Notes: generated by a model not told the origin, from the letters alone. A stretch of DNA of 64,000 nucleotides from a virus (IMGVR_UViG_3300028534_000028:1124-65123); one strand, 5' to 3'; shown: positions 7,931-36,223, counted from the stretch's first letter. A program made the numbers and translations.

Positions 7931-9055
7931 ATGGATGTAGAAATCTTTAAAAAAGAATTTATTTTTATATTGCGAGGAAAAGAAACCATAAATATTCAAA
8001 AAGTCAATAAAAAATTAATTTTAGAATTTCCAAATATTTATAAAAAGATTTTAGATTATACCAAAGATTTTAATATTCATCCAGAATTAAATAATCTTGG
8101 TACTCTTTGCAAATTATGGTTTTATAAATTACCTAATCCAATTTGTAAAGAATGTGGAAAACCTATTAAGAAATTAGATAGATTATTTTGCTGTATTCAA
8201 TGTAGAAATAAAAATAAGGAACTGATAGAAATTTCTAAAAAAAGTTCTATTGAAAAGTATGGAGTATCACATTATTCAAAAACTACGGAATTTCGAGAAA
8301 AAATAAAAGAAATAACTCCATTTAAAAATAAAGATAAGATTAAAGAAGCCATTTTTAAAAAATATGGAGTTTATAATGTTTCTAAAATTCCGGAAATTAA
8401 AGAAAAAAGTACGAAAACATTTATAAAAAATTTTAGAAAAACGAATAATATTTCGAAAGAAAAGTTTTTAGAATTTAAAAATAATGATTTTTTAGATTTC
8501 GAAGGATTAGCTAATCGTTATAATTGGAGTCATCTTTCTTTATCTCAACCTAGAAAATGGGCTAAAAAATTAGAAATAGATTATAATAATCGTACAAATA
8601 CTTCTGTAAAAGAAAGAGAAATACTGTCTTTTATAAAAGATAATTATTCAGGTAAAATAATTACAAATGATAGAAACATTCTAAATGGTTTAGAATTAGA
8701 TATATATTTACCTGAATTAAAATTAGCTTTTGAATATAATGGTTTATATTGGCATAGTTATGGTTTAAATAATATTTCTAAAAAACAGAATGATATGGAA
8801 TTTCAGAAAAATCGACATTTGGATAAAATAATTAAATGTTCTAAAAGAGATATCGAATTAATTCATATTTTTGAAAATCAACTGTACGAAGACTTAATTT
8901 TAACCAAAATTAAGTCTTCTAGGCAATTTTCAAAGTTTGAATTAAAATGTTATAAATATAAAAATAATGATATAAGCGAAGCTTTCGAAATATTAATACC
9001 AAAATATTTATCAGAACATTATAGAATAATTTGGATTCCGGAGGAAATAAGGTGA
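7931..9055 (+). CDS. homing-type endonuclease with Zn finger, KYGV repeats and C-terminal PD-(D/E)XK domain
   Basis: CKECGK...CCIQC, two KYGV repeats, ELDIYLPELKLAFEYNGLYWHS. Confidence 0.8.
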   Translation: MDVEIFKKEFIFILRGKETINIQKVNKKLILEFPNIYKKILDYTKDFNIHPELNNLGTLCKLWFYKLPNPICKECGKPIKKLDRLFCCIQCRNKNKELIEISKKSSIEKYGVSHYSKTTEFREKIKEITPFKNKDKIKEAIFKKYGVYNVSKIPEIKEKSTKTFIKNFRKTNNISKEKFLEFKNNDFLDFEGLANRYNWSHLSLSQPRKWAKKLEIDYNNRTNTSVKEREILSFIKDNYSGKIITNDRNILNGLELDIYLPELKLAFEYNGLYWHSYGLNNISKKQNDMEFQKNRHLDKIIKCSKRDIELIHIFENQLYEDLILTKIKSSRQFSKFELKCYKYKNNDISEAFEILIPKYLSEHYRIIWIPEEIR

Positions 9056-10365
9056 ATATAGAAATTCCTAAAAAAATATTAAAAGAAAATAGTTGGCATA
9101 TTAAAGTAATGGGTGCTTATGTTCAGAATCCTGTTCCAGGTATTTATGGATTAGAAATTGATACTTTAATTAATTCAACGGATGCGGCAGCTCTATATCC
9201 AACAAGTACCGTTTATTCTAATATTTCTCCTGAAACGATTTTCGGAAGAATATATGATTCAAGTACAATTCAAAATTTTATAGGATTAATGGACAAGATT
9301 TTTCTTATGAAAAGTAAGGGTCAGACACCATCTCAAATTAAAACTTTGGTTATACCAAGTTTTAAATCAGCCATGTTACAATTACTAAAAAATTATAGTA
9401 CTCAACATAACGTTAAAAATAAAAAAGAAGCTGAATTAGTAACCACAGAATATTATTGTGAATTATTAAGTAAGTTAATTAATTACAATGGAAAATTAGA
9501 GGATATCTATACACCAAAAGATGATAAAACATATTATCTTTTGAGAAGTTGTTTCTTTCCCCTAATTGAAAGTATATCTTGGTTAAGTCCACAAAATAAA
9601 GGATTTAGCCAAATTACAATTGATTATATTTTTTATCCAGAATTATTTGAAACTAAATACCAAACTCAAAAAAGTTATTTATTTACGGATTACAATTCTG
9701 TAAATATTAATTTTAAAATTCTAGATAAAGAAGAATTAGTAAATAATTATTTTCAAAATTATTTACTAAATTCTTATGGTACTTTATTTTATAAACATTC
9801 TGAAAAACTAGCTTTTGAAGTTCAATTAATTATTGACGGATTGGCGGAAAGAAGAATTGTTAAAAATAAAATGCTAGTATTAGACGCGATTATAGCTAAA
9901 TTTAATTCATGTCCAAGTATTAAAAAAATATTTAAACATAGTATTGAATTTTTAGATGAAGAAATAGCGAATAATATTTTAACAGAAATAGAAGACGATC
10001 AGCCAAGACAAAAAAGAATACAATCTTTAATAAATATCGATTTCGAAGGAAAATCTTTTAACGATTCGGATAAATTATTAACTTATTTAAATATCAGAAA
10101 AGATCAATTTAATAGTAATCAAAATGGTATTAAAGTAAGTCTTAATAGTGGTTATGGAATTCTTGGAATGATTTCTTATGAATTCAGTGATCCATTATCA
10201 GCAAACAGTATTACAAATGCTGGAAAAATATTTGGAATTAAAGTTTTCCAAACAGTAAGCGCTTGGGTAATGGAATTATATGAAGAAAAATTAAAAGAAT
10301 GTGATGAAAGTAATAATTGGCTTGATCCAGAATGGGTCGATTTAAAATTATTAGAAGTTGCTTAA
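9052..10365 (+). CDS. family B DNA polymerase fragment (motifs A and B only)
   Basis: GTG start with SD GGAGG; GAYVQNPVPGIY, DAAALYPT (motif A), KVSLNSGYG (motif B); no exonuclease motifs and no YGDTDS. Confidence 0.85.
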   Translation: MNIEIPKKILKENSWHIKVMGAYVQNPVPGIYGLEIDTLINSTDAAALYPTSTVYSNISPETIFGRIYDSSTIQNFIGLMDKIFLMKSKGQTPSQIKTLVIPSFKSAMLQLLKNYSTQHNVKNKKEAELVTTEYYCELLSKLINYNGKLEDIYTPKDDKTYYLLRSCFFPLIESISWLSPQNKGFSQITIDYIFYPELFETKYQTQKSYLFTDYNSVNINFKILDKEELVNNYFQNYLLNSYGTLFYKHSEKLAFEVQLIIDGLAERRIVKNKMLVLDAIIAKFNSCPSIKKIFKHSIEFLDEEIANNILTEIEDDQPRQKRIQSLINIDFEGKSFNDSDKLLTYLNIRKDQFNSNQNGIKVSLNSGYGILGMISYEFSDPLSANSITNAGKIFGIKVFQTVSAWVMELYEEKLKECDESNNWLDPEWVDLKLLEVA

Positions 10366-12595: not shown

Positions 12596-12835
12596 ATGGA
12601 AAATGATATAGATCAAGAAATACAGACTATTAAAAACGAAGTTCAGACATTAAATGCTCAAAAACTTGAAATAGAAAAGCAAATTATTATTCAAGATGAA
12701 AGAATTCGTTCTTTAAAAGAGCAATTATTAGCCGAATATGGTACTGATGATGAAGCCGAACTTTTAAAAATAAAAGAGAATCTTGAAAAAGAAATTCAAG
12801 AACTTAAGGAAAAGATTAATGTGGAAACGACTTAA
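12596..12835 (+). CDS. small coiled-coil protein
   Basis: 79 aa heptad-rich sequence. Confidence 0.65.
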   Translation: MENDIDQEIQTIKNEVQTLNAQKLEIEKQIIIQDERIRSLKEQLLAEYGTDDEAELLKIKENLEKEIQELKEKINVETT

Positions 12836-17721: not shown

Positions 17722-19810
17722 GAGAGGAAGACGTCGAAACGCTCGTAATAAAAATAAAGAGCAACAAAAAAATCAGAAAACTGTAACTGGAGAAGAGTTG
17801 GGATTTCAGAGAGGTCCTAAAGAAAAGCTTACAAAAGCACAAAAAAAAGCACAAAAAAAACAACGCAAAAAGGAAGAAAAAATGGCAGCGAGATTTAATT
17901 TAAATGGAACTAGAAAAACATGGTTTGGTGGTGGTAAACATGCCGCAGGTGGATACAAAACAATTGCAAAACCCAGTGATGGAACAGATGATAAAACATT
18001 AAATATAGTTTTATTCAAACAATCGTTTTTAAATAATTTGGCTAATCAGTGTGTTCCTGTCGCTGGTGGAGCGGAGTTTCAGGTGCATTACCGAGCATTA
18101 CAAATTATAATTACTAAGGAACGTATTGGTAGAATAGTTTATACAATACCAACTGTATTTTTTAATTTTAATCAAACCGTAACATCGGGATCGGTTGATT
18201 ATGATCTGGTTGAAGTTGACAAGATTTCTAAAGAGCTTCAACCAGAATCTATGGAAGTTGCGAATCAAATTGCTGCTTTATTCCCAAAAGCCTTTTTTGA
18301 AGGCAATGGTTTTACAGTAAGTTTTAAGGAAGATGAGGTTGGTAGTATTCATAGACACCCAGGTGATTTTTCTTTCAGTAGTATCGATTTAGATAATAAT
18401 CCGCAACATCCAGGGGTTATTTATAGACGCGGTAATGCATCCGATTTAATTCAAACGGATTCGGTAATGTATATCACTGGCTCAGCTGGCTCACAACATG
18501 TTAAATTGGTTACTACTCAAACACGTGTCGTAAACGTAAGTTTATTAAACAATGGTGAAGATGGTATTAAAGGTTCTTATAATAGAGCAAAAACTGTAGC
18601 TCTTATTCTTAAAGATACTGATACCGCCGAAACTATTCAGCAAAAAATTAGTATTGATTTCAATGCCTTTTTTAACGAAAACGAAGTTCAGGAAATAACC
18701 ACCCCTGGTATGGATACCGTTAAAGAAGATTTTCTTCCTAGATACGATAAAATCAAAGAGGATGAAATTCAAGAAGTTCTTGAAAATACAGCAAAAATAT
18801 TTAAATTGATTGCTGTGAAAGTTCCTGCTCCAATTACAAAAGTCGATGAAAAGCTTATCAAGTCACGAGGGTATGGAAACTATGCTGGGAGTGGATATGG
18901 ATATCAGGTTTATGGTAATAACCGTACCATTGGTAATGTTCGTCATTATGATCATGTTACTGGTACTTGGGTAGATGAAGAAGAGGAAGAGGAAAAACTT
19001 CCATTAAAATTCGATGTATTGGATTTTTTAAAATTTAAAGGTCTTGATAAAAAAGATACTAAAGTTACAGAAATCTTAGCTGATGATGTAGTTAAAGAGA
19101 TGTTTTGGATGTGTGCCGGAGAAGATGAAAAAGTAAATTTTAAATTAAATGATAAGTTGGTAATTATTGAACCAGTATCTAAAGCATCGCAACTTCTTAA
19201 AGTTACTTATGCTGGGACATCATCGTATAAAGCTAAAAGTATTTTTGAGAACAATGATGTCTCAGAAGAACTTAAAGAAGCTGGCTATATTAACGAAGAA
19301 GAAGAAGATGATATAGATTTATTAGAATATGTTGGTCTTGATGAAACCGAAATACCTACAAATACCGAATTAGCTACGGAACAACCGGAAGCAGAAGAAG
19401 CTGCTAAATCAGGAGGAATAAATTCTGGTCATACCGATGTTAAAGAATTGGAAAAATCACAAGAGCTTTTAAAAATTACAAAATTATTTGAAAAGCATGG
19501 TTTACGTATCCCAGAACGTCTTTTAAAAGATATTGGTAAAGATACTCAATGTGAGCAAATTTTTAAGAAAGCTTATCCTGGAGTTCTTTACGATAACAAT
19601 GGTCTTCTTAAAGTTTATGGAGAAGATGGTTTTAGTGAAATATTGATGATGTTACCAGTAGATACTGGTATTTTATTTTATCCAAAAACAGATACTGATT
19701 CATTTGTATATATCGCACCAATAGACGAAGGTGATACACATGGTAATGTTACATTCTGTAATAATGCGGTAGAGTTTTCCAAACAGGTTCCATTATATCA
19801 AAAGGATTAA
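17714..19810 (+). CDS. JAB/MPN (JAMM) metallopeptidase-like protein with basic N-terminus and acidic C-terminal region
   Basis: E121 (GAEFQ) plus H213-R-H215-x6-S222-xx-D225 (HRHPGDFSFSSID). Confidence 0.6.
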   Translation: MSRRGRRRNARNKNKEQQKNQKTVTGEELGFQRGPKEKLTKAQKKAQKKQRKKEEKMAARFNLNGTRKTWFGGGKHAAGGYKTIAKPSDGTDDKTLNIVLFKQSFLNNLANQCVPVAGGAEFQVHYRALQIIITKERIGRIVYTIPTVFFNFNQTVTSGSVDYDLVEVDKISKELQPESMEVANQIAALFPKAFFEGNGFTVSFKEDEVGSIHRHPGDFSFSSIDLDNNPQHPGVIYRRGNASDLIQTDSVMYITGSAGSQHVKLVTTQTRVVNVSLLNNGEDGIKGSYNRAKTVALILKDTDTAETIQQKISIDFNAFFNENEVQEITTPGMDTVKEDFLPRYDKIKEDEIQEVLENTAKIFKLIAVKVPAPITKVDEKLIKSRGYGNYAGSGYGYQVYGNNRTIGNVRHYDHVTGTWVDEEEEEEKLPLKFDVLDFLKFKGLDKKDTKVTEILADDVVKEMFWMCAGEDEKVNFKLNDKLVIIEPVSKASQLLKVTYAGTSSYKAKSIFENNDVSEELKEAGYINEEEEDDIDLLEYVGLDETEIPTNTELATEQPEAEEAAKSGGINSGHTDVKELEKSQELLKITKLFEKHGLRIPERLLKDIGKDTQCEQIFKKAYPGVLYDNNGLLKVYGEDGFSEILMMLPVDTGILFYPKTDTDSFVYIAPIDEGDTHGNVTFCNNAVEFSKQVPLYQKD

Positions 19811-19811
19811 A

Positions 19812-20849
19812 ATGAATAAAGTGGCATTCGTTAAAGATCCTCATCTTATGTTTGGGTTTTCTAATAATATTAGGAAACCCTTAGCGAATAGTTCTGGAAA
19901 TAGTTGGGAAAAAAGTATTCGGTATAAATTAGAATTTATAGCTAAAACTATGAAAGACAATGGAATACGTATCTTAATTATGTCGGGGGATGTTTTTGAT
20001 CGATCTAACAGAAGTGATTGGTCATTTAATAAATGGCTGAAACATAAAAGCATATTGTTAAATATTTTCGTACGTGAAGGCATCGAGATTTATTCAGTAC
20101 AAGGTAATCATGATATGTTTGATGGAAAAGATGAAATTAATGACACCGTATTTGGAGAAATGATTGAAAAAGGTATTATCAAACATTTAACTGCTCATCC
20201 ATTAGAGTTTCAAACAGCCGTGGGAATTATTAAAATTCATGGTATGGATTATTCATTTACAAAAGATAAACAAAAAAGAAAGTTTCAGTTGTTGAATGAA
20301 AATTCAAAAGATTATATTAGCTTATGTGTATCACATACCAATATAAGTCCAAATGAAGATCATTTGGTAGATTTTACTTATCTGGAGTTAAGCGAAAATT
20401 TTCCAAATATAGATGTCCATTTATGTGGTCATTATCATTTAGGTTATGAAAGTACTATTTTAAATGATGTTACTTTTATTAATCCTTGGAATATGACCAG
20501 AGTTATTCGTGAATATCAAGTCCGTATGGATAACCATACTCCAGAAGTAGTATTATTAGATTTAGATAGATATAATTCTGATAATATTGATTGGGTACAG
20601 CATGTGGAAATTCCCCATTTACCATTTCATGAAGCTTTTAACGAGGAGGTTATATCAGTACTAAAGGAAAATCAAAAGTTTAAATTTTTCGAGGATTCTT
20701 TTGGTGAAGTTATTAGTCTAGATGGACTTATTGATGAGGATTTAGATGATAATCAATTACTCAGTGTAATTATTAATTCTGTTCTTGGAGATAAGGACAC
20801 TAAAGAAAAACAAGCTTTATTAAATAAAGCTTTAGAATATTTAATTTAA
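19812..20849 (+). CDS. sbcD: Mre11/SbcD-like nuclease
   Basis: DPH, SGDVFD, GNHD, SHT, GHYH calcineurin-like motifs; NPW..TR. Confidence 0.85.
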   Translation: MNKVAFVKDPHLMFGFSNNIRKPLANSSGNSWEKSIRYKLEFIAKTMKDNGIRILIMSGDVFDRSNRSDWSFNKWLKHKSILLNIFVREGIEIYSVQGNHDMFDGKDEINDTVFGEMIEKGIIKHLTAHPLEFQTAVGIIKIHGMDYSFTKDKQKRKFQLLNENSKDYISLCVSHTNISPNEDHLVDFTYLELSENFPNIDVHLCGHYHLGYESTILNDVTFINPWNMTRVIREYQVRMDNHTPEVVLLDLDRYNSDNIDWVQHVEIPHLPFHEAFNEEVISVLKENQKFKFFEDSFGEVISLDGLIDEDLDDNQLLSVIINSVLGDKDTKEKQALLNKALEYLI

Positions 20850-31307: not shown

Positions 31308-31718
31308 ATGATATTGTACTCATTGGAAATCCATAAATGCGATAATTATTTTTATAGTCATGATACCTTTAGTTGTAAAAAAGTAAATGTAATTGATACT
31401 ATAAATTGTGAAAGTATTTATAAAGAAAATGGAAAAATAATTAGAAAAAATAGTTCCATAAAATATAAAATAATTGATGAAAAAGGAATAGAAGAACTAG
31501 TTAATATAAACGATGGAAAATATTTTAAATCATTAAAAGAACTTTTAAAATATTTTAAAAAAGAATATTTTAAAATTTATTCGGATAATTATTATGATTA
31601 TTATATGGATTCGGATACTAAAAATTTAGTTACCTGCGTTTCTAATTTATCTAATCGCGGTTTAGGATTATCCAAAGATCATATAGATTTACAAAAAGAG
31701 TTAAAGGAAAATAAATGA
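31308..31718 (+). CDS. hypothetical protein
   Basis: 136 aa ORF. Confidence 0.6.
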   Translation: MILYSLEIHKCDNYFYSHDTFSCKKVNVIDTINCESIYKENGKIIRKNSSIKYKIIDEKGIEELVNINDGKYFKSLKELLKYFKKEYFKIYSDNYYDYYMDSDTKNLVTCVSNLSNRGLGLSKDHIDLQKELKENK

Positions 31719-32686
31719 AAAAAGTAGAAAAGTTAGATGAACTTATAGATGGAGAATATTATTGGATGCATAGTAATATGATATTCGATAATGGTTCTAG
31801 AAGTTCCCAAATGTTAATTGGGAGATATTTTGATAACGAAGATGGTAGAGCTTATTTTGAAGCTTATTCTGGAGACCGTATTTGGTCGCACGATGGTAAT
31901 AACCAAGCGATGGAAAAATACGATATATATGGACCAATTCCAAAACCATTTTCTGGAAAACCAGAAATTGGACAATTTTCGGATTTTGAAAAAGTATTCG
32001 GAAATAATGAAGAATTGTATTCGATGATAGCTCAAATCAGAGATTATTTTCCAAATGAAATTACAAAATATATTCCGGAGAGTAGTGCCTATAGTTCACC
32101 CGAATGTGTTTTATTCGCTCTTTATAAAAGTCTCGAAGATAAACTATCATCTCAAAAAAAGATAACTAAAAGTACCAATAGTTTACTATCTGTAGATGAC
32201 GTCTCTAAAGAAAATGATTTTGAATTCTTTTGGGGAGGAGTATTTTCACAATGGGCTAAATATAATTTTACGGATGAATATGGGGTAACTTATAACTGTG
32301 CAGAACAATATATGATGGCTCAAAAAGCAGAAATTTTTAATGATACGGAAATGTATAATAAAATTATGGCAAGTTCCGATCCAAGAGAACAAAAAGCATT
32401 TGGTAGAAAAATAAAAGGTTTTAATGACGAAGAATGGGATAAATATAAAATAAAAATAGTCCACAATGGAACATATTTAAAATTTTCCCAACATTTAGAA
32501 TTAAAAAAATATCTTTTAAGTACTGGAAATAAAATTATAGTAGAAGCTTCACCATATGATAGAGTTTGGGGAATTGGTTTAAGTGAAACCGATCCTAAAA
32601 GATTCGATCCAAAATTATGGAGAGGTCAGAATTTGCTTGGTTTTATTATAACTCAAGTAAGAGAACAATTAAAGGAAGATAAATGA
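31715..32686 (+). CDS. NADAR (YbiA-like) hydrolase fused to an unknown N-terminal region
   Basis: FSQW, AEQYMMAQKA, QKAFGRKI, LKFSQH, LLSTG...VEASPYDRVWGIG, GQNLLG. Confidence 0.92.
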   Translation: MKKVEKLDELIDGEYYWMHSNMIFDNGSRSSQMLIGRYFDNEDGRAYFEAYSGDRIWSHDGNNQAMEKYDIYGPIPKPFSGKPEIGQFSDFEKVFGNNEELYSMIAQIRDYFPNEITKYIPESSAYSSPECVLFALYKSLEDKLSSQKKITKSTNSLLSVDDVSKENDFEFFWGGVFSQWAKYNFTDEYGVTYNCAEQYMMAQKAEIFNDTEMYNKIMASSDPREQKAFGRKIKGFNDEEWDKYKIKIVHNGTYLKFSQHLELKKYLLSTGNKIIVEASPYDRVWGIGLSETDPKRFDPKLWRGQNLLGFIITQVREQLKEDK

Positions 32687-33492
32687 AATTTATACAATTA
32701 GGAAATGGTGGTGGATTAGATCCAACTGTTACCAACAGTAGTTTTTTAGTCCAGGTAAAAGAAGATGAATATCTATTATTTGATTGTGGTTTTAATGTTA
32801 TGCAAAAACTTATAGAATTACAGGAAGAATCTTTGCAGAATAATGAACATTTTCATATTTCGAAAATTAAATATGTTTTTATTTCACATATTCATGATGA
32901 TCATGTTGGAAATGTGGAAACATTAATGTTTTGGAATTATTTTAAAAATAATGTTTCTATGACTTGGCTATATGCAAATGAAGAAGTAAAAAATTATTTA
33001 GAAATGAAAATAAAACCAAAATTATACAATGGTGGAAAAGTAGACGAATATTCTATTATTCAATCTAATATTAGATCTGTTTCTGGAGATAGCGATTTTC
33101 CATATATAATTGTTCATCCTAGACGAGAAAACCAAAACACTGCCGAAACTATCAAATTATTATCATTGCAGGAAACCTTTCATGGTGGATGCCCATCAAA
33201 TGGTTTAGTAATAATTAAAGAGTTTGATAATGGTATTACAAGATATAAAACCTGTATTGTTATTTCTGGAGATACTAAAGCGTCACTATACTTAGAAGAA
33301 GAGATATTATATAAAACATCAAACTCTTTTCGTACTATAATATATCATGATTTTAGTGATTGGAATTGTCCAAGTAAAAATGTACATGCATGTGAATCAG
33401 ATATTGTTAACGAGTACTCAGAGGAATTTAGAGAATCTTTAATTTGGTATCATAATAACGATGAGTTTAATGATGGTTGGTTAGATTGGTAA
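32683..33492 (+). CDS. metallo-beta-lactamase-fold phosphodiesterase, Apyc1/RNase Z-like
   Basis: LG.GG, NSSFLV, LFDCG, H69-I-H-D-D-H74, SGDT, YHD, VHA, terminal YH. Confidence 0.8.
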   Translation: MKFIQLGNGGGLDPTVTNSSFLVQVKEDEYLLFDCGFNVMQKLIELQEESLQNNEHFHISKIKYVFISHIHDDHVGNVETLMFWNYFKNNVSMTWLYANEEVKNYLEMKIKPKLYNGGKVDEYSIIQSNIRSVSGDSDFPYIIVHPRRENQNTAETIKLLSLQETFHGGCPSNGLVIIKEFDNGITRYKTCIVISGDTKASLYLEEEILYKTSNSFRTIIYHDFSDWNCPSKNVHACESDIVNEYSEEFRESLIWYHNNDEFNDGWLDW

Positions 33493-33499
33493 AAGAGTG

Positions 33500-33529
33500 A
33501 AAAAAAGAACCTTCGGGTTCTTTTTTTTT
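33500..33529 (+). terminator. intrinsic terminator, probably bidirectional
   Basis: A7-GAACC-TTCG-GGTTC-T9, cUUCGg loop. Confidence 0.9.
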
Positions 33530-33555: not shown

Positions 33556-35589
33556 ATGGAAAATAATATCCAAGATTTCGAAAATAAATTAATTCAATTA
33601 AATAATCAATTTCATATTAGTACAAAAATTAAAGAAAATTTGGAAAATGAAAATCAGATTTTTTTAAATAATTGTGTTGGTATCGAAAAAGAATTAAAAT
33701 TATTAAATGATACTAAAATGCTTTTAGAAACTTTAAAAATACATAAATTAAAGGAAAAAAAGGATTTTATTTTAAATATAGTAAATACAGCGTTAACAGA
33801 TATTTTTCAAGATAATATTAAAATTGCTATAGAACCACAAGAAAGTAAAGGCAAGATTAATACAAGTGGCACTCAAAAATTTGATATAATTTTTTATCAG
33901 AACGATATTGAGTTAGCTAGAAACGAAGAATTACTTATTTCCAATGGTGGTGGTATAATGCAAGTTGTATCAATGCTTTTTAAATTATTAATAGGTTTTA
34001 TTTATTCTAAAAATACTTTTTATATGTTTGATGAAAGTTTTAGCCAATTAAGTCAAGATAACAGAATACGTCTTAGTAAATTTTTACAAATGTTTTGTGA
34101 AAAATACAACTTTACTATAGTAGTTGTTTCTCAAGTTCTTGATTTAGATGAGTACGCAGATATTATTTATAGCGTAAATGTCAAATATGATAATAAAGGA
34201 GTTCGAGAACTAGTATTGGAAGATTCTAAATTTAAAGAAGGTATATTTGAAAGAAATTCTCAGGTTGGTGAGGAAGGAGTTTGGCATATAAATATTAAAA
34301 ATTTCCAAAGTATTAAAAATATAGATTTACGATTTAAAGGTTATACTATAATACGTGGACCAAATAATTCTGGTAAAAGTGCTATACTTAGAGCAGTTAG
34401 TTCAATACTTTATAATTCTTTCAATGTAAAAAAATATCCTCGTAAAGCTGGTGGTTTAGATTCTAAAGGTAATCCTAGTAAAAAAGTACTTAATACGGAA
34501 ATATTTTTAAGAAAAACTTATTCTGTAAATCCAGAAGAGTATAATGGTGCTCTTGGTATTGGTAAAGAAATTGGATTACGTTATAAAAGTTCTAAAGTAT
34601 CCTTTGTTATAGAAGGTGAAGAATACTATGGAAAGAATTTAGCAGCTGAAAAACTTATGGAAAAGATCGAAGAACTTGGATTCAAGTACATAAATATGAA
34701 AGAATTCTATAAAAATTTTAAAGGTAATTTAAAAGATCAAACCGAAAGAATTGCTAGTACTACTCAGTATGATGGATTATTTTTGGTTGGTTCCAAAGGT
34801 AACGAAACCGAAAAGATTTTTAACTTTTTATTTAATACTGAAAATATTACAAAAGCTATTTTAAAAGTTAAAGAAGATATGATACTTTTATCAAAAAATC
34901 ATGAATCTACTCAAGAAAGAATTTTGGAAAATACTTCTAAAATAAATAATGTAAATAACGAAATACAATATTATTTAAATTTATATTATTTAACGATTAT
35001 TGAAAATTTATCTTTATTCGATACAAAAGTATTAACGGATTATTTAAATAATCTTAATTTTGGAATTGATATTAGAAATCGAATTATATTTATTTATCAA
35101 AATAATATAGTTTTATTTAATAGAGAATTTTTAAAGGTAAAGAAAGCTATACAATATATAAACGATATAAAAAATAATATCGTTTTAATTGATGAGCAAA
35201 TTGAATTAAAATCCTACAAAATCGTAATACTTGAAGAAATAAAGTTAAAAATAAATAAACTAGAAATAATCAATAATGATATTCAATTAAAGAAAACCAT
35301 AGAAACATTGGAATTTGATTCAGATACGAAATTAAAAGAGATAAAAGTAATTGATTTTGGTTTAAAAATTAGAGAGCAAATACTTCATAAATTAGAAAAA
35401 TTATCTAAATTAAAAAAATACCTATATCAGTATACAAAAGATTATCGAAATAAAAATAATTTAGAATTATATTTGGAACCAGTTTTAAATCAATTACAAA
35501 TTATTAAAATTAAACAAGAAAATTTATTTACAGAATGTTCCCATTGTTCTGGTAAAGGATTTATATTAAAGGATAGAAATGCAAAATAA
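33556..35589 (+). CDS. sbcC: SbcC/Rad50-like ABC ATPase, circularly permuted
   Basis: Signature SNGGG aa129, Walker B FDES aa158, then Walker A GPNNSGKS aa268, coiled coil, CSHC aa661-664. Confidence 0.82.
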   Translation: MENNIQDFENKLIQLNNQFHISTKIKENLENENQIFLNNCVGIEKELKLLNDTKMLLETLKIHKLKEKKDFILNIVNTALTDIFQDNIKIAIEPQESKGKINTSGTQKFDIIFYQNDIELARNEELLISNGGGIMQVVSMLFKLLIGFIYSKNTFYMFDESFSQLSQDNRIRLSKFLQMFCEKYNFTIVVVSQVLDLDEYADIIYSVNVKYDNKGVRELVLEDSKFKEGIFERNSQVGEEGVWHINIKNFQSIKNIDLRFKGYTIIRGPNNSGKSAILRAVSSILYNSFNVKKYPRKAGGLDSKGNPSKKVLNTEIFLRKTYSVNPEEYNGALGIGKEIGLRYKSSKVSFVIEGEEYYGKNLAAEKLMEKIEELGFKYINMKEFYKNFKGNLKDQTERIASTTQYDGLFLVGSKGNETEKIFNFLFNTENITKAILKVKEDMILLSKNHESTQERILENTSKINNVNNEIQYYLNLYYLTIIENLSLFDTKVLTDYLNNLNFGIDIRNRIIFIYQNNIVLFNREFLKVKKAIQYINDIKNNIVLIDEQIELKSYKIVILEEIKLKINKLEIINNDIQLKKTIETLEFDSDTKLKEIKVIDFGLKIREQILHKLEKLSKLKKYLYQYTKDYRNKNNLELYLEPVLNQLQIIKIKQENLFTECSHCSGKGFILKDRNAK

Positions 35590-36223
35590 TTATTTAAATT
35601 ATTTAAAAAATTTACCTACGGATAACAATATAAAAGTATCCGGACAAAATACTATAAACGATATAACTAAAAGTATAAACACTTCTGGTTTATCTGGAAT
35701 AGAAATTGGAGAAAAATTAATTGAAGATTCCAGTATTAATGAAATAATGGATTATTCGGATTATCAAAATTTGACTAAAAAATTTAAAACGTTTATTGAT
35801 ACCAATTATAAAAATTGGTATCAAATACCAATCGAGAAAAATAATATTTATACCAGTATATTAGAAGAAGCCACTAAATTATTATCTGAATTATTTCCTT
35901 ATAATAAAAACGTTCCTAATGTTAATGAAGCAAACATATTTGAAAATTTATCAAATATGTTTTTTTATATTTATTTAATTTTTATTCATAAAGGCGAAGA
36001 AGTTTCATTATATAGTTTAATTAATAGTTATATTAAAATTAGCGAAGATCAAACCTTTCAAAGGGATAAAGGTATTATATATCATAACGCTTGGGACACA
36101 ATTTTAATACCAATAAGTATTAAACAATACCATTTAATACTTATTAAATTATTAGATTTTTGGTTTGGTATTGGTGGAACTTGGGAATCTCTTAAAAAAC
36201 GATTATCTATAAAATTATTATAA
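35579..36223 (+). CDS. hypothetical protein
   Basis: 214 aa ORF. Confidence 0.65.
   Translation: MQNNYLNYLKNLPTDNNIKVSGQNTINDITKSINTSGLSGIEIGEKLIEDSSINEIMDYSDYQNLTKKFKTFIDTNYKNWYQIPIEKNNIYTSILEEATKLLSELFPYNKNVPNVNEANIFENLSNMFFYIYLIFIHKGEEVSLYSLINSYIKISEDQTFQRDKGIIYHNAWDTILIPISIKQYHLILIKLLDFWFGIGGTWESLKKRLSIKLL

Follow-up and report, generated by a model that had tools for sequence, protein, structure and literature searches.

In Rad50, SbcC and the SMC proteins, the two halves of the ATPase lie at the ends of the polypeptide chain, and the chain between them forms a coil that folds back on itself, with a hook or hinge at the turn; how movements of the head travel along this folded arm to the hook is a matter of mechanistic debate. 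A gene at positions 33,556-35,589 of a 64,000-nucleotide stretch of viral DNA (IMGVR_UViG_3300028534_000028:1124-65123, the whole of which is called the window below) encodes a protein, P0001, in which this arrangement is reordered. With canonical systems such as P. furiosus Rad50-Mre11, E. coli SbcCD and T4 gp46/gp47, the protein and its homologues share a bipartite ABC (ATP-binding cassette) head bearing Walker A, signature and Walker B motifs and a putative Q-loop, a predicted antiparallel coil emerging from the head, a conserved CxxC motif (often CPxC), and linkage to an Mre11/SbcD-type gene within a phage replication and recombination module. In contrast to the canonical enzymes, the two lobes stand in the opposite order and follow one directly on the other, both ends of the chain fall within the coil rather than in the head, and the CxxC motif, extended to CxxCxGxG, stands at the extreme C-terminus with no helix returning from it. 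The most probable explanation is that P0001 is a Rad50/SbcC-type ABC ATPase in a naturally occurring, circularly permuted form, which arose by gene fission and re-fusion and acts with an SbcD partner.

Practically all jumbo phages are reported to carry SbcCD (PMC7824862). Both T4 and SPN3US depend on SbcC as an essential protein, in genomes of the phiKZ type sbcC and sbcD lie far from each other, and the SbcC described for SPN3US and phiKZ is canonical (PMC5105663). Homologues of P0001 are currently unnamed or labelled 'EcfA2 transporter ATPase', and as a result of these missing or wrong labels the jumbo phages concerned appear to lack SbcC. No description of a permuted or hook-split Rad50/SbcC was found in the literature covered, which did not take in Krishnan et al. 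2020 on how ABC ATPases are classified; in the papers covered the term 'permuted' referred only to genome ends, methylases or fluorescent sensors. Likewise, tblastn searches of 50,697 phage records with P0001 and a divergent relative, P0139, recovered no fused homologue, matching only two split C-halves from Bacillus, and megablast of 10 kb of the window gave no match among cultured phages. As a natural, conserved variant with covalently joined lobes, chain ends in the arm, a terminal cysteine pair and most of the return strand gone, the family tests which features of the arm are essential, since most of that strand is absent, and its compact single-chain head could suit structural and single-molecule work.

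Layout, conservation and fold of the ATPase

The chain runs from an N-terminal helix through the C-lobe (signature and Walker B), a linker, the N-lobe (Walker A) and a long coil to the CxxC motif, and no member of the family has the canonical Rad50 order (Table 1). A first-pass annotation of the window had reported this swapped order, placing SNGGG, FDES, VVSQ, GPNNSGKS and CSHC along the protein; each motif does stand at the residues it gave, and the order recurs, in a single continuous open reading frame (ORF), in all 93 full-length homologues. The annotation was also right about where the terminal CSHC lies, but the fuller motif there is CxxCxGxG. These homologues come from a search covering 5.8 billion proteins, which yielded 97 clusters of 38-80% identity over the full length from JGI, ENA, NCBI and Logan assemblies, on contigs of up to 295 kb; about 48 clusters at 50% identity carry the permuted architecture, and seven further fused copies are found on IMG/VR viral contigs of 34-281 kb. 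The architecture is thus common to dozens of uncultured phage lineages.

Across the 93 homologues, N130, G131, G132 and G133 of the signature, D159 and E160 of Walker B, G268, G273, K274 and S275 of Walker A, and C661, C664 and G668 of the terminal motif are invariant, and G666 of CxxCxGxG is kept in 91; the motif lies 9-29 residues (median 12) before the C-terminus. Q404 is invariant, as are Q395 and D406, and both glutamines fall in a Q-Y-D-G-L-F block where the Q-loop is expected, the Q-loop being assigned by position only. The head-proximal part of the N-terminal helix is similarly constrained, with K61, K64, F71, I72, L73, N77, A79 and F84 invariant. Two positions depart from the canonical enzymes. 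The D-loop Asp is replaced by Ser in all 93, and the His-switch residue, noted at the outset to be Gln (Gln193 here), proves to be a subfamily trait, Gln in 67 of the 93 and His in the other 26.

Both halves of the head resemble Rad50. When the family profile was compared with all Protein Data Bank (PDB) sequences, P. furiosus Rad50 was the top match (whole-sequence E 3.4e-6), with profile positions 233-303 aligned to Rad50 residues 6-80, the Walker A lobe, and positions 151-215 aligned to residues 294-357, from Walker B to the His-switch. The AlphaFold2 (AF2) model has a mean predicted local confidence (pLDDT) of 80, with the head mostly above 85, and Foldseek placed it among Rad50 and SMC heads, the best fits being 1f2u_B and 1f2u_D (TM-score 0.68-0.69, root-mean-square deviation (rmsd) 3.7-4.5 A), which are separately expressed C-terminal half-chains. 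A second aligner superposed residues 240-427 on the Rad50 N-half 1f2u_C (Z 8.8, rmsd 3.2 A, 22% identity) and residues 31-227 on C-half heads of SMC and Rad50 proteins (Z 7.8-8.6; 5h66_B, 8.6). By profile and by fold, then, the two halves match the same Rad50/SMC family and not unrelated ABC proteins, the outcome on which the first-pass reading had hung. Chains of 1F2U, the best structural matches of each half, belong to P. furiosus Rad50cd (1F2T/1F2U), an engineered two-chain protein whose lobes form a working head without one continuous chain; Rad50cd is a laboratory construct without the coil, whereas the phage protein is natural, full-length and carries a new covalent link. That link is the linker of residues 227-241, which runs from where the C-lobe ends to the strand that opens the N-lobe. 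The two lobes would form an ordinary Rad50-like head, now joined by this 15-residue segment, and two such heads would be expected to sandwich ATP, with the Walker A of one against the signature of the other.

Several observations weigh against this assignment. The sole curated model that P0001 passes, AAA_23 (38.3 bits against a cut-off of 27), is generic, and Pfam SMC_N, AAA_29 and AAA_27 match residues 244-288 only, all below their gathering scores (SMC_N, 33.2 against 40). The best NCBIfam name is Rad50, yet that model, PRK02224, scores 21 bits against a cut-off of 1087, and NCBIfam and PADLOC matches alike sit on the P-loop far below their cut-offs, the PADLOC matches spanning residues 244-288 for most models and 244-462 at most. 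The P-loop region fits models of OLD, GajA and PtuA equally well, although the protein has no Toprim or other effector domain and no adjacent defence partner gene was found for OLD, GajA, PtuA or LmuB. The non-canonical D-loop and His-switch suggest that catalysis may differ from that of Rad50. The window's record is a 65.9-kb fragment, estimated to be 23% complete, in which no second AAA_23 protein was found; a canonical SbcC could therefore lie elsewhere in the genome. The weak matches of the nuclease partner and the rooting of the tree, both treated below, belong on the same side of the balance.

Table 1. Features of the permuted ATPase gene and of two genes discussed with it; positions are those of the window.
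Feature	Residues	Position	Strand	Basis or remark
Whole gene, probable circularly permuted Rad50/SbcC-type ABC ATPase	677 (P0001)	33556-35589	+	Single open frame without internal stop
N-terminal helix	2-84	33559-33807	+	AF2 helix, pLDDT ~90
C-lobe	88-226	33817-34233	+	phrog_15167 match; Rad50 294-357 alignment; SMC/Rad50 C-half fold
Signature SNGGG	S129-N-G-G-G133	33940-33954	+	C-lobe motif
Walker B FYMFDE	D159/E160 (F158-D-E-S161)	34018-34035	+	C-lobe motif
His-switch position	Gln193 (V190-V-S-Q193)	34132-34134	+	C-lobe; D-loop position is Ser166
Linker, 15 residues	227-241	34234-34278	+	pLDDT 85-93; kept in all homologues
N-lobe, with KNFQS strand	242-427	34279-34836	+	Pfam; Rad50 6-80 alignment; 1f2u_C fold
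Walker A GPNNSGKS	G268-S275	34357-34380	+	N-lobe motif
Q-loop	Q404	34765-34767	+	N-lobe; assigned by position
Long coil, ~230 residues	429-657	34840-35526	+	AF2 helices 429-516, 518-564 and 587-657
C-terminal beta-knuckle (CSHC)	658-671; C661-x-x-C664-x-G666-x-G668	35527-35568	+	Beta-hairpin in both models
Mre11/SbcD-type metallophosphoesterase	345	19812-20849	+	Pfam Metallophos E 1.2e-9; phrog_100, SbcD-like, E 2e-6
Helix-turn-helix coiled-coil protein, central YGT turn	79	12596-12835	+	Leave-one-out profile E 4.9e-6 among 784 ORFs

The nearest relatives of the fused protein, by profile search and by tree, are phage SbcCs whose gene is split at the hook. The family phrog_15167, a standalone 211-residue 'ATPase', matches residues 7-212 end to end over its positions 6-204 (E 4.1e-11), and the N-termini of phrog_4747 and phrog_16465 ('exonuclease') match residues 243-290. 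The only cultured-phage match of P0001 is the Bacillus prophage phBC6A51, in which BC1852, a 518-residue 'Exonuclease SbcC', is followed by two small ORFs, BC1855, one further ORF and BC1857, 'Exonuclease SbcD'. BC1855, a 211-residue 'Chromosome segregation ATPase', consists of an ~85-residue helix followed by signature, Walker B and His-switch, and BC1852 carries Walker A, a long coil and then CPLC 13 residues from its end, so that the halves stand in canonical order. The cultured jumbo phage Tunturi_5 has a 485-residue N-half ending in CGKC, found through a six-frame search (L018:166-1623), 109 kb from a 221-residue C-half, gp14 (L012, record positions 19071-19736), which is annotated only as 'ATPase'. 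Two further contigs, L022 and L030, carry the halves as separate genes with SbcD between them, which brings to four the systems in which the hook-split arrangement is seen; in BC1852, Tunturi_5 and L022 (CQTC) the CxxC lies 11-21 residues from the end of the N-half.

The split halves begin and end where the modules of the fused protein do, down to the terminal CxxC and the short helix, and they share with it the asymmetry of coil lengths, a DE-x3-VS variant of the D-loop and the association with SbcD. They differ in that each half has its own gene, the two standing in canonical order or far from each other, whereas the fused family has one chain with the C-half first. Tunturi_5 gp23 and Magritte gp4 were considered as further N-halves and dismissed on inspection of their sequences. 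BC1852 (L001:2756-4312) also matches a Lamassu LmuB model (PDLC03859, 57 bits, residues 4-494) despite lying in an SbcD cluster, and split SbcC and LmuB may be close relatives.

The arm and the terminal cysteine pair

The two strands of the arm are of very different length. Across the 93 homologues the N-terminal helix spans 75-109 residues (median 81), and the coil that follows the N-lobe 200-338 (median 231), in discrete length classes, with no correlation between the two (r = 0.17). The shortness of the N-terminal coil, remarked on when the gene was first annotated, is accordingly real and family-wide, and from these lengths 120-260 coil residues are left without an intramolecular partner of matching length. 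In the AF2 model of P0001, the first ~88 coil residues (429-516) pair with the N-terminal helix, and the distal ~140 have no such partner. The second aligner superposed residues 5-489 on long antiparallel two-helix coils (for example, 125 residues at 1.2 A), which indicates that the N-terminal helix has as its partner the helix emerging from the N-lobe. Residues 2-84 are thus modelled as the return strand of a head-proximal antiparallel coiled coil, an arm that would extend for about 12 nm.

What the unpaired distal segment does is suggested by its own properties and by the motif at its end. Residues 505-657 folded alone give one continuous helix (pLDDT 94-98), proline and glycine make up 1.6% of the coil against 8.9% of the head, and no mid-coil Pro/Gly breaker is conserved across the family. 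The CxxCxGxG motif is a putative hook-like zinc half-site. The same motif occurs on a beta-hairpin in the cysteine-rich domain of DnaJ and in B. subtilis Anti-TRAP, and each zinc centre of DnaJ is built from two CxxCxGxG knuckles; in contrast to DnaJ, the permuted ATPase has one knuckle per chain, so that a four-cysteine site needs a second chain. With two invariant cysteines per chain, a second chain would have to complete any zinc site. The distal ~140 residues and the CxxCxGxG motif most likely mediate dimerization, each protomer giving two cysteines to one zinc. A possible geometry, offered tentatively and judged somewhat less likely than not, is that the single distal strands of two protomers pair as a parallel stalk of about 20 nm, clasped by zinc at its tip. 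A fold search with the distal coil alone found nothing significant, the top row being the Anti-TRAP zinc knuckle at E 5.1, and the structural resemblance to Anti-TRAP is therefore not significant for this fragment. A complex prediction with two copies of residues 500-677 and zinc returned a score of 0.00 and, being without controls, counts neither way on dimerization.

A parallel stalk, if true, would close an SMC-type ring in a topologically new way, and it would be common to thousands of hook-split phage SbcCs, making the textbook folded-back coil dispensable. It is preferred here over an arrangement, itself rather unlikely, in which the head is the same and the distal coil folds back as a hairpin with a plain loop at its apex, the zinc knuckle returning to the tip of the N-terminal helix, splicing the broken return strand and joining the arms midway. 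The full-length AF2 model speaks for the hairpin and so against the stalk, since it splits the coil at residues 565-586 into helices of 47 and 71 residues, the last of pLDDT 69-87; the hairpin would also set the N- and C-termini side by side, as a permutation would predict, and homologues of a 194-residue coil class have a conserved proline ~39 residues before the cysteine pair. Confidence at the 565-586 break, however, falls below pLDDT 50, folding residues 505-677 alone makes this stretch helical at pLDDT 97-98, and no mid-coil Pro/Gly loop is conserved across the family.

A further alternative, an unlikely one, is that one or several small coiled-coil proteins provide the distal return strand in trans, which would make the enzyme a multi-piece Rad50 of which only the head pieces have been re-fused. 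The candidate for such an accessory coil subunit is the 79-residue protein encoded at 12596, which had been put forward in this role at the first reading. Its gene is indeed conserved and co-occurs with the ATPase, with a single homologue on every one of five further large contigs bearing the fused form, and in L004 and L008 it immediately precedes SbcD; moreover, small helix-turn-helix coil ORFs are present in all three truly split clusters examined (BC1854, and ORFs of 98 residues in L022 and 95 residues in L030). The synteny, on the other hand, does not tie it specifically to SbcD: the gene lies next to topoisomerase II in the window's lineage and everywhere between a PolB fragment and SbcD, which are neighbours that do not single out the nuclease. 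A relationship between the 79-residue protein and the three split-cluster ORFs was considered and is not supported, with hhalign probabilities of 0.3-7% and BLASTP giving E 0.013 over 27 coil residues. In addition, 79 residues are too few to pair with ~140, and the L002/L025/L026 subclade has a different, beta-rich ORF of ~105 residues beside SbcD. Matches of the small-coil profile were circular until the leave-one-out run, and a 100-residue ORF of L020 was not recovered by the profile when it was left out.

The probable SbcD-type partner and the gene neighborhood

The metallophosphoesterase encoded ~13 kb upstream of the ATPase is the probable nuclease partner, judging from orthology and from linkage in relatives, and in this the initial proposal of an Mre11 partner is supported. 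The protein is 36-41% identical over its full length to Metallophos genes that stand beside the permuted ATPase in related phages, and the DxH, GD, GNHD, H and GHxH motifs are all invariant among the orthologues. Against the assignment, its only PDB sequence matches, to SbcD/Mre11, are weak (E 0.03-0.05); it matches TIGR00619 sbcd at E 6e-6, below the cut-off. Of 13 fused-type loci, 8 have an SbcD orthologue upstream of the ATPase gene and on its strand, at distances of at most 0.3 kb in L002, L020, L025 and L026 (5 nucleotides in L020), 4-6.4 kb in L004, L008 and L029, and 13.7 kb in the window. In L007, which is the closest large relative, the genes follow the backbone seen in the window (Metallophos, QueC and a ClpB-like ATPase ahead of the permuted ATPase), and given this shared order the larger spacing in the window reflects intervening genes. 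Together, the ATPase and the nuclease would process DNA ends for recombination-dependent replication, as T4 gp46/gp47 do.

The surroundings are a replication and recombination module, with topoisomerase II subunits and a PolB fragment with a homing endonuclease, and with rIIA and rIIB in L004 and L008. This context bears on a different identity for the protein, namely that it is not the phage's SbcC at all and is instead another SMC/ABC coiled-coil ATPase, serving for example in compaction, defence or counter-defence, whose linkage to a metallophosphoesterase is incidental. Such a reading, which is quite improbable, could appeal to the confinement of named-family matches to the P-loop (OLD, GajA and PtuA among them), to the non-canonical D-loop and His-switch, and to the position of the window's gene among accessory genes such as NADAR and the MBL hydrolase. 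It is opposed, however, by the fit of both lobes, which is best to Rad50/SMC, by the split relatives, which lie in clusters annotated SbcC/SbcD, by the adjacency of a Metallophos orthologue in the basal and several other members, by the lack of any other SbcC candidate in the window's record, and by the wider context of topoisomerase II, PolB and rII genes.

Immediate neighbors of the ATPase in the window proved not to be partners. The gene downstream (35579-36223), which encodes 214 residues, overlaps the ATPase stop by 11 nucleotides and matches no Pfam or PHROGs family, was rejected as a partner: it is shared only with L007 (L007:9992-10696, 29% identity), and more distant relatives have an unrelated PIG-L/LmbE-type gene at its position. 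Upstream are a gene for a NADAR-domain protein (31715-32686) and one for an MBL-fold hydrolase with a weak Apyc1-like match below the cut-off (32683-33492). The hydrolase was rejected as the nuclease partner, being absent from relatives' neighborhoods; since this holds for NADAR too, the two are taken to be lineage-specific insertions. Between the hydrolase and ATPase genes lies a palindromic hairpin of 12 pairs with A7 and T7 flanks (33500-33527), which could terminate transcription both ways; the ATPase gene therefore probably opens a new transcription unit.

Other genes recur in subsets of the relatives. In the L002/L025/L026 subclade, the beta-rich ~105-residue ORF lies between SbcD and the ATPase (L002:7681-8001, L025:9592-9909, L026:9666-9980), with stops and starts that overlap or abut its neighbors, and a conserved, cysteine-containing ORF of 130-146 residues stands just upstream of SbcD. 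Neither matches any PHROG family, and the two are possible accessory subunits peculiar to the lineage. The PolB 'fragment' of 417-444 residues, which covers the motif A-B region, is present in the window (9031-10365) and in three relatives (L004:30-1325, L008:924-2177, L031:5124-6437), and it has the look of an established split in the polymerase gene rather than of a remnant in decay.

Origin of the permutation

The relation of the fused family to the hook-split forms points to the route by which the permutation arose. When a profile of the C-lobe half was scored against 1.84 billion representatives, the 48 proteins at E <= 1e-30 were all of the fused type, and next came hundreds of standalone proteins of 190-225 residues; no canonical long SbcC with a C-terminal match was among the best 150. 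A maximum-likelihood tree of 138 C-halves, with the root set on the Bacillus prophage C-half, places 40 of the 41 fused rows in one clade (SH-aLRT 96), and with the divergent fused P0139, its partner P0141 (unresolved) and P0169 these rows form a clade of 43 (support 84) nested among split forms. P0140/L010 and P0141/L009 had been considered as intermediates split in permuted order and were rejected because their contigs are too short or the neighbors unrelated, and P0169, taken for a time as a split C-half sister to the fused clade, is in fact a fused-type gene interrupted after Walker A.

The likely route, as far as these sequence comparisons indicate, is fission at the hook followed by re-fusion in reverse order, because the nearest relatives are hook-split and the fused clade is nested among split C-halves; the suggestion, made when the gene was first described, that it had been split near the hook and rejoined with its halves swapped agrees with these natural split systems. 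An ancestral phage SbcC would first have been split just after the CxxC hook, giving an N-half gene (Walker A lobe, long coil and terminal CxxC) and a C-half gene (short helix and signature/Walker B lobe), and a single lineage of large uncultured phages would then have acquired the fused gene, through one joining of the C-half gene ahead of the N-half gene. The result would be an evolutionary series from canonical through hook-split to re-fused and permuted forms, and one of the few documented examples of a permutation reached through fission and fusion. It tells against this history that the direction from split to fused depends on the root of the tree, which is set by the Bacillus C-half and by taking the universal canonical form as ancestral, and that the tree comes from a quick search.

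A tandem duplication in a canonical SbcC gene that then lost both its ends, the split forms being separate or later, would follow the textbook route to circular permutants, and the rooting of the tree on the Bacillus prophage C-half is an assumption that leaves it some room. It is nevertheless very unlikely, in that no duplicated-lobe intermediate occurs among the 97 and 150 homologues, the split halves share exact module boundaries with the fused protein (terminal CxxC and short helix included), the DE-x3-VS variant is common to split forms and fused family, and no canonical SbcC is among the 150 nearest relatives of the C-lobe half. The chance that the gene is an artefact, two adjacent genes joined through assembly or frameshift error, is negligible: breaks do occur in this family, as the interrupted gene of the L020 relative shows, but the same unbroken frame is found in ~97 clusters from JGI, ENA, NCBI and Logan and in the seven IMG/VR contigs, many of them independent assemblies, the linker is conserved and confidently modelled, and an order common to 93 homologues and ~48 clusters is not that of an assembly join, which was one of the doubts raised at the first reading.

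The L020 gene is of interest in its own right. P0169 (L020:2506-3654), a basal gene of the fused type, has a stop right after the Walker A helix, and the remainder of the N-lobe continues in the next ORF, 25 nucleotides downstream; the interruption may reflect a pseudogene, an error in the sequencing or a split of a second kind.

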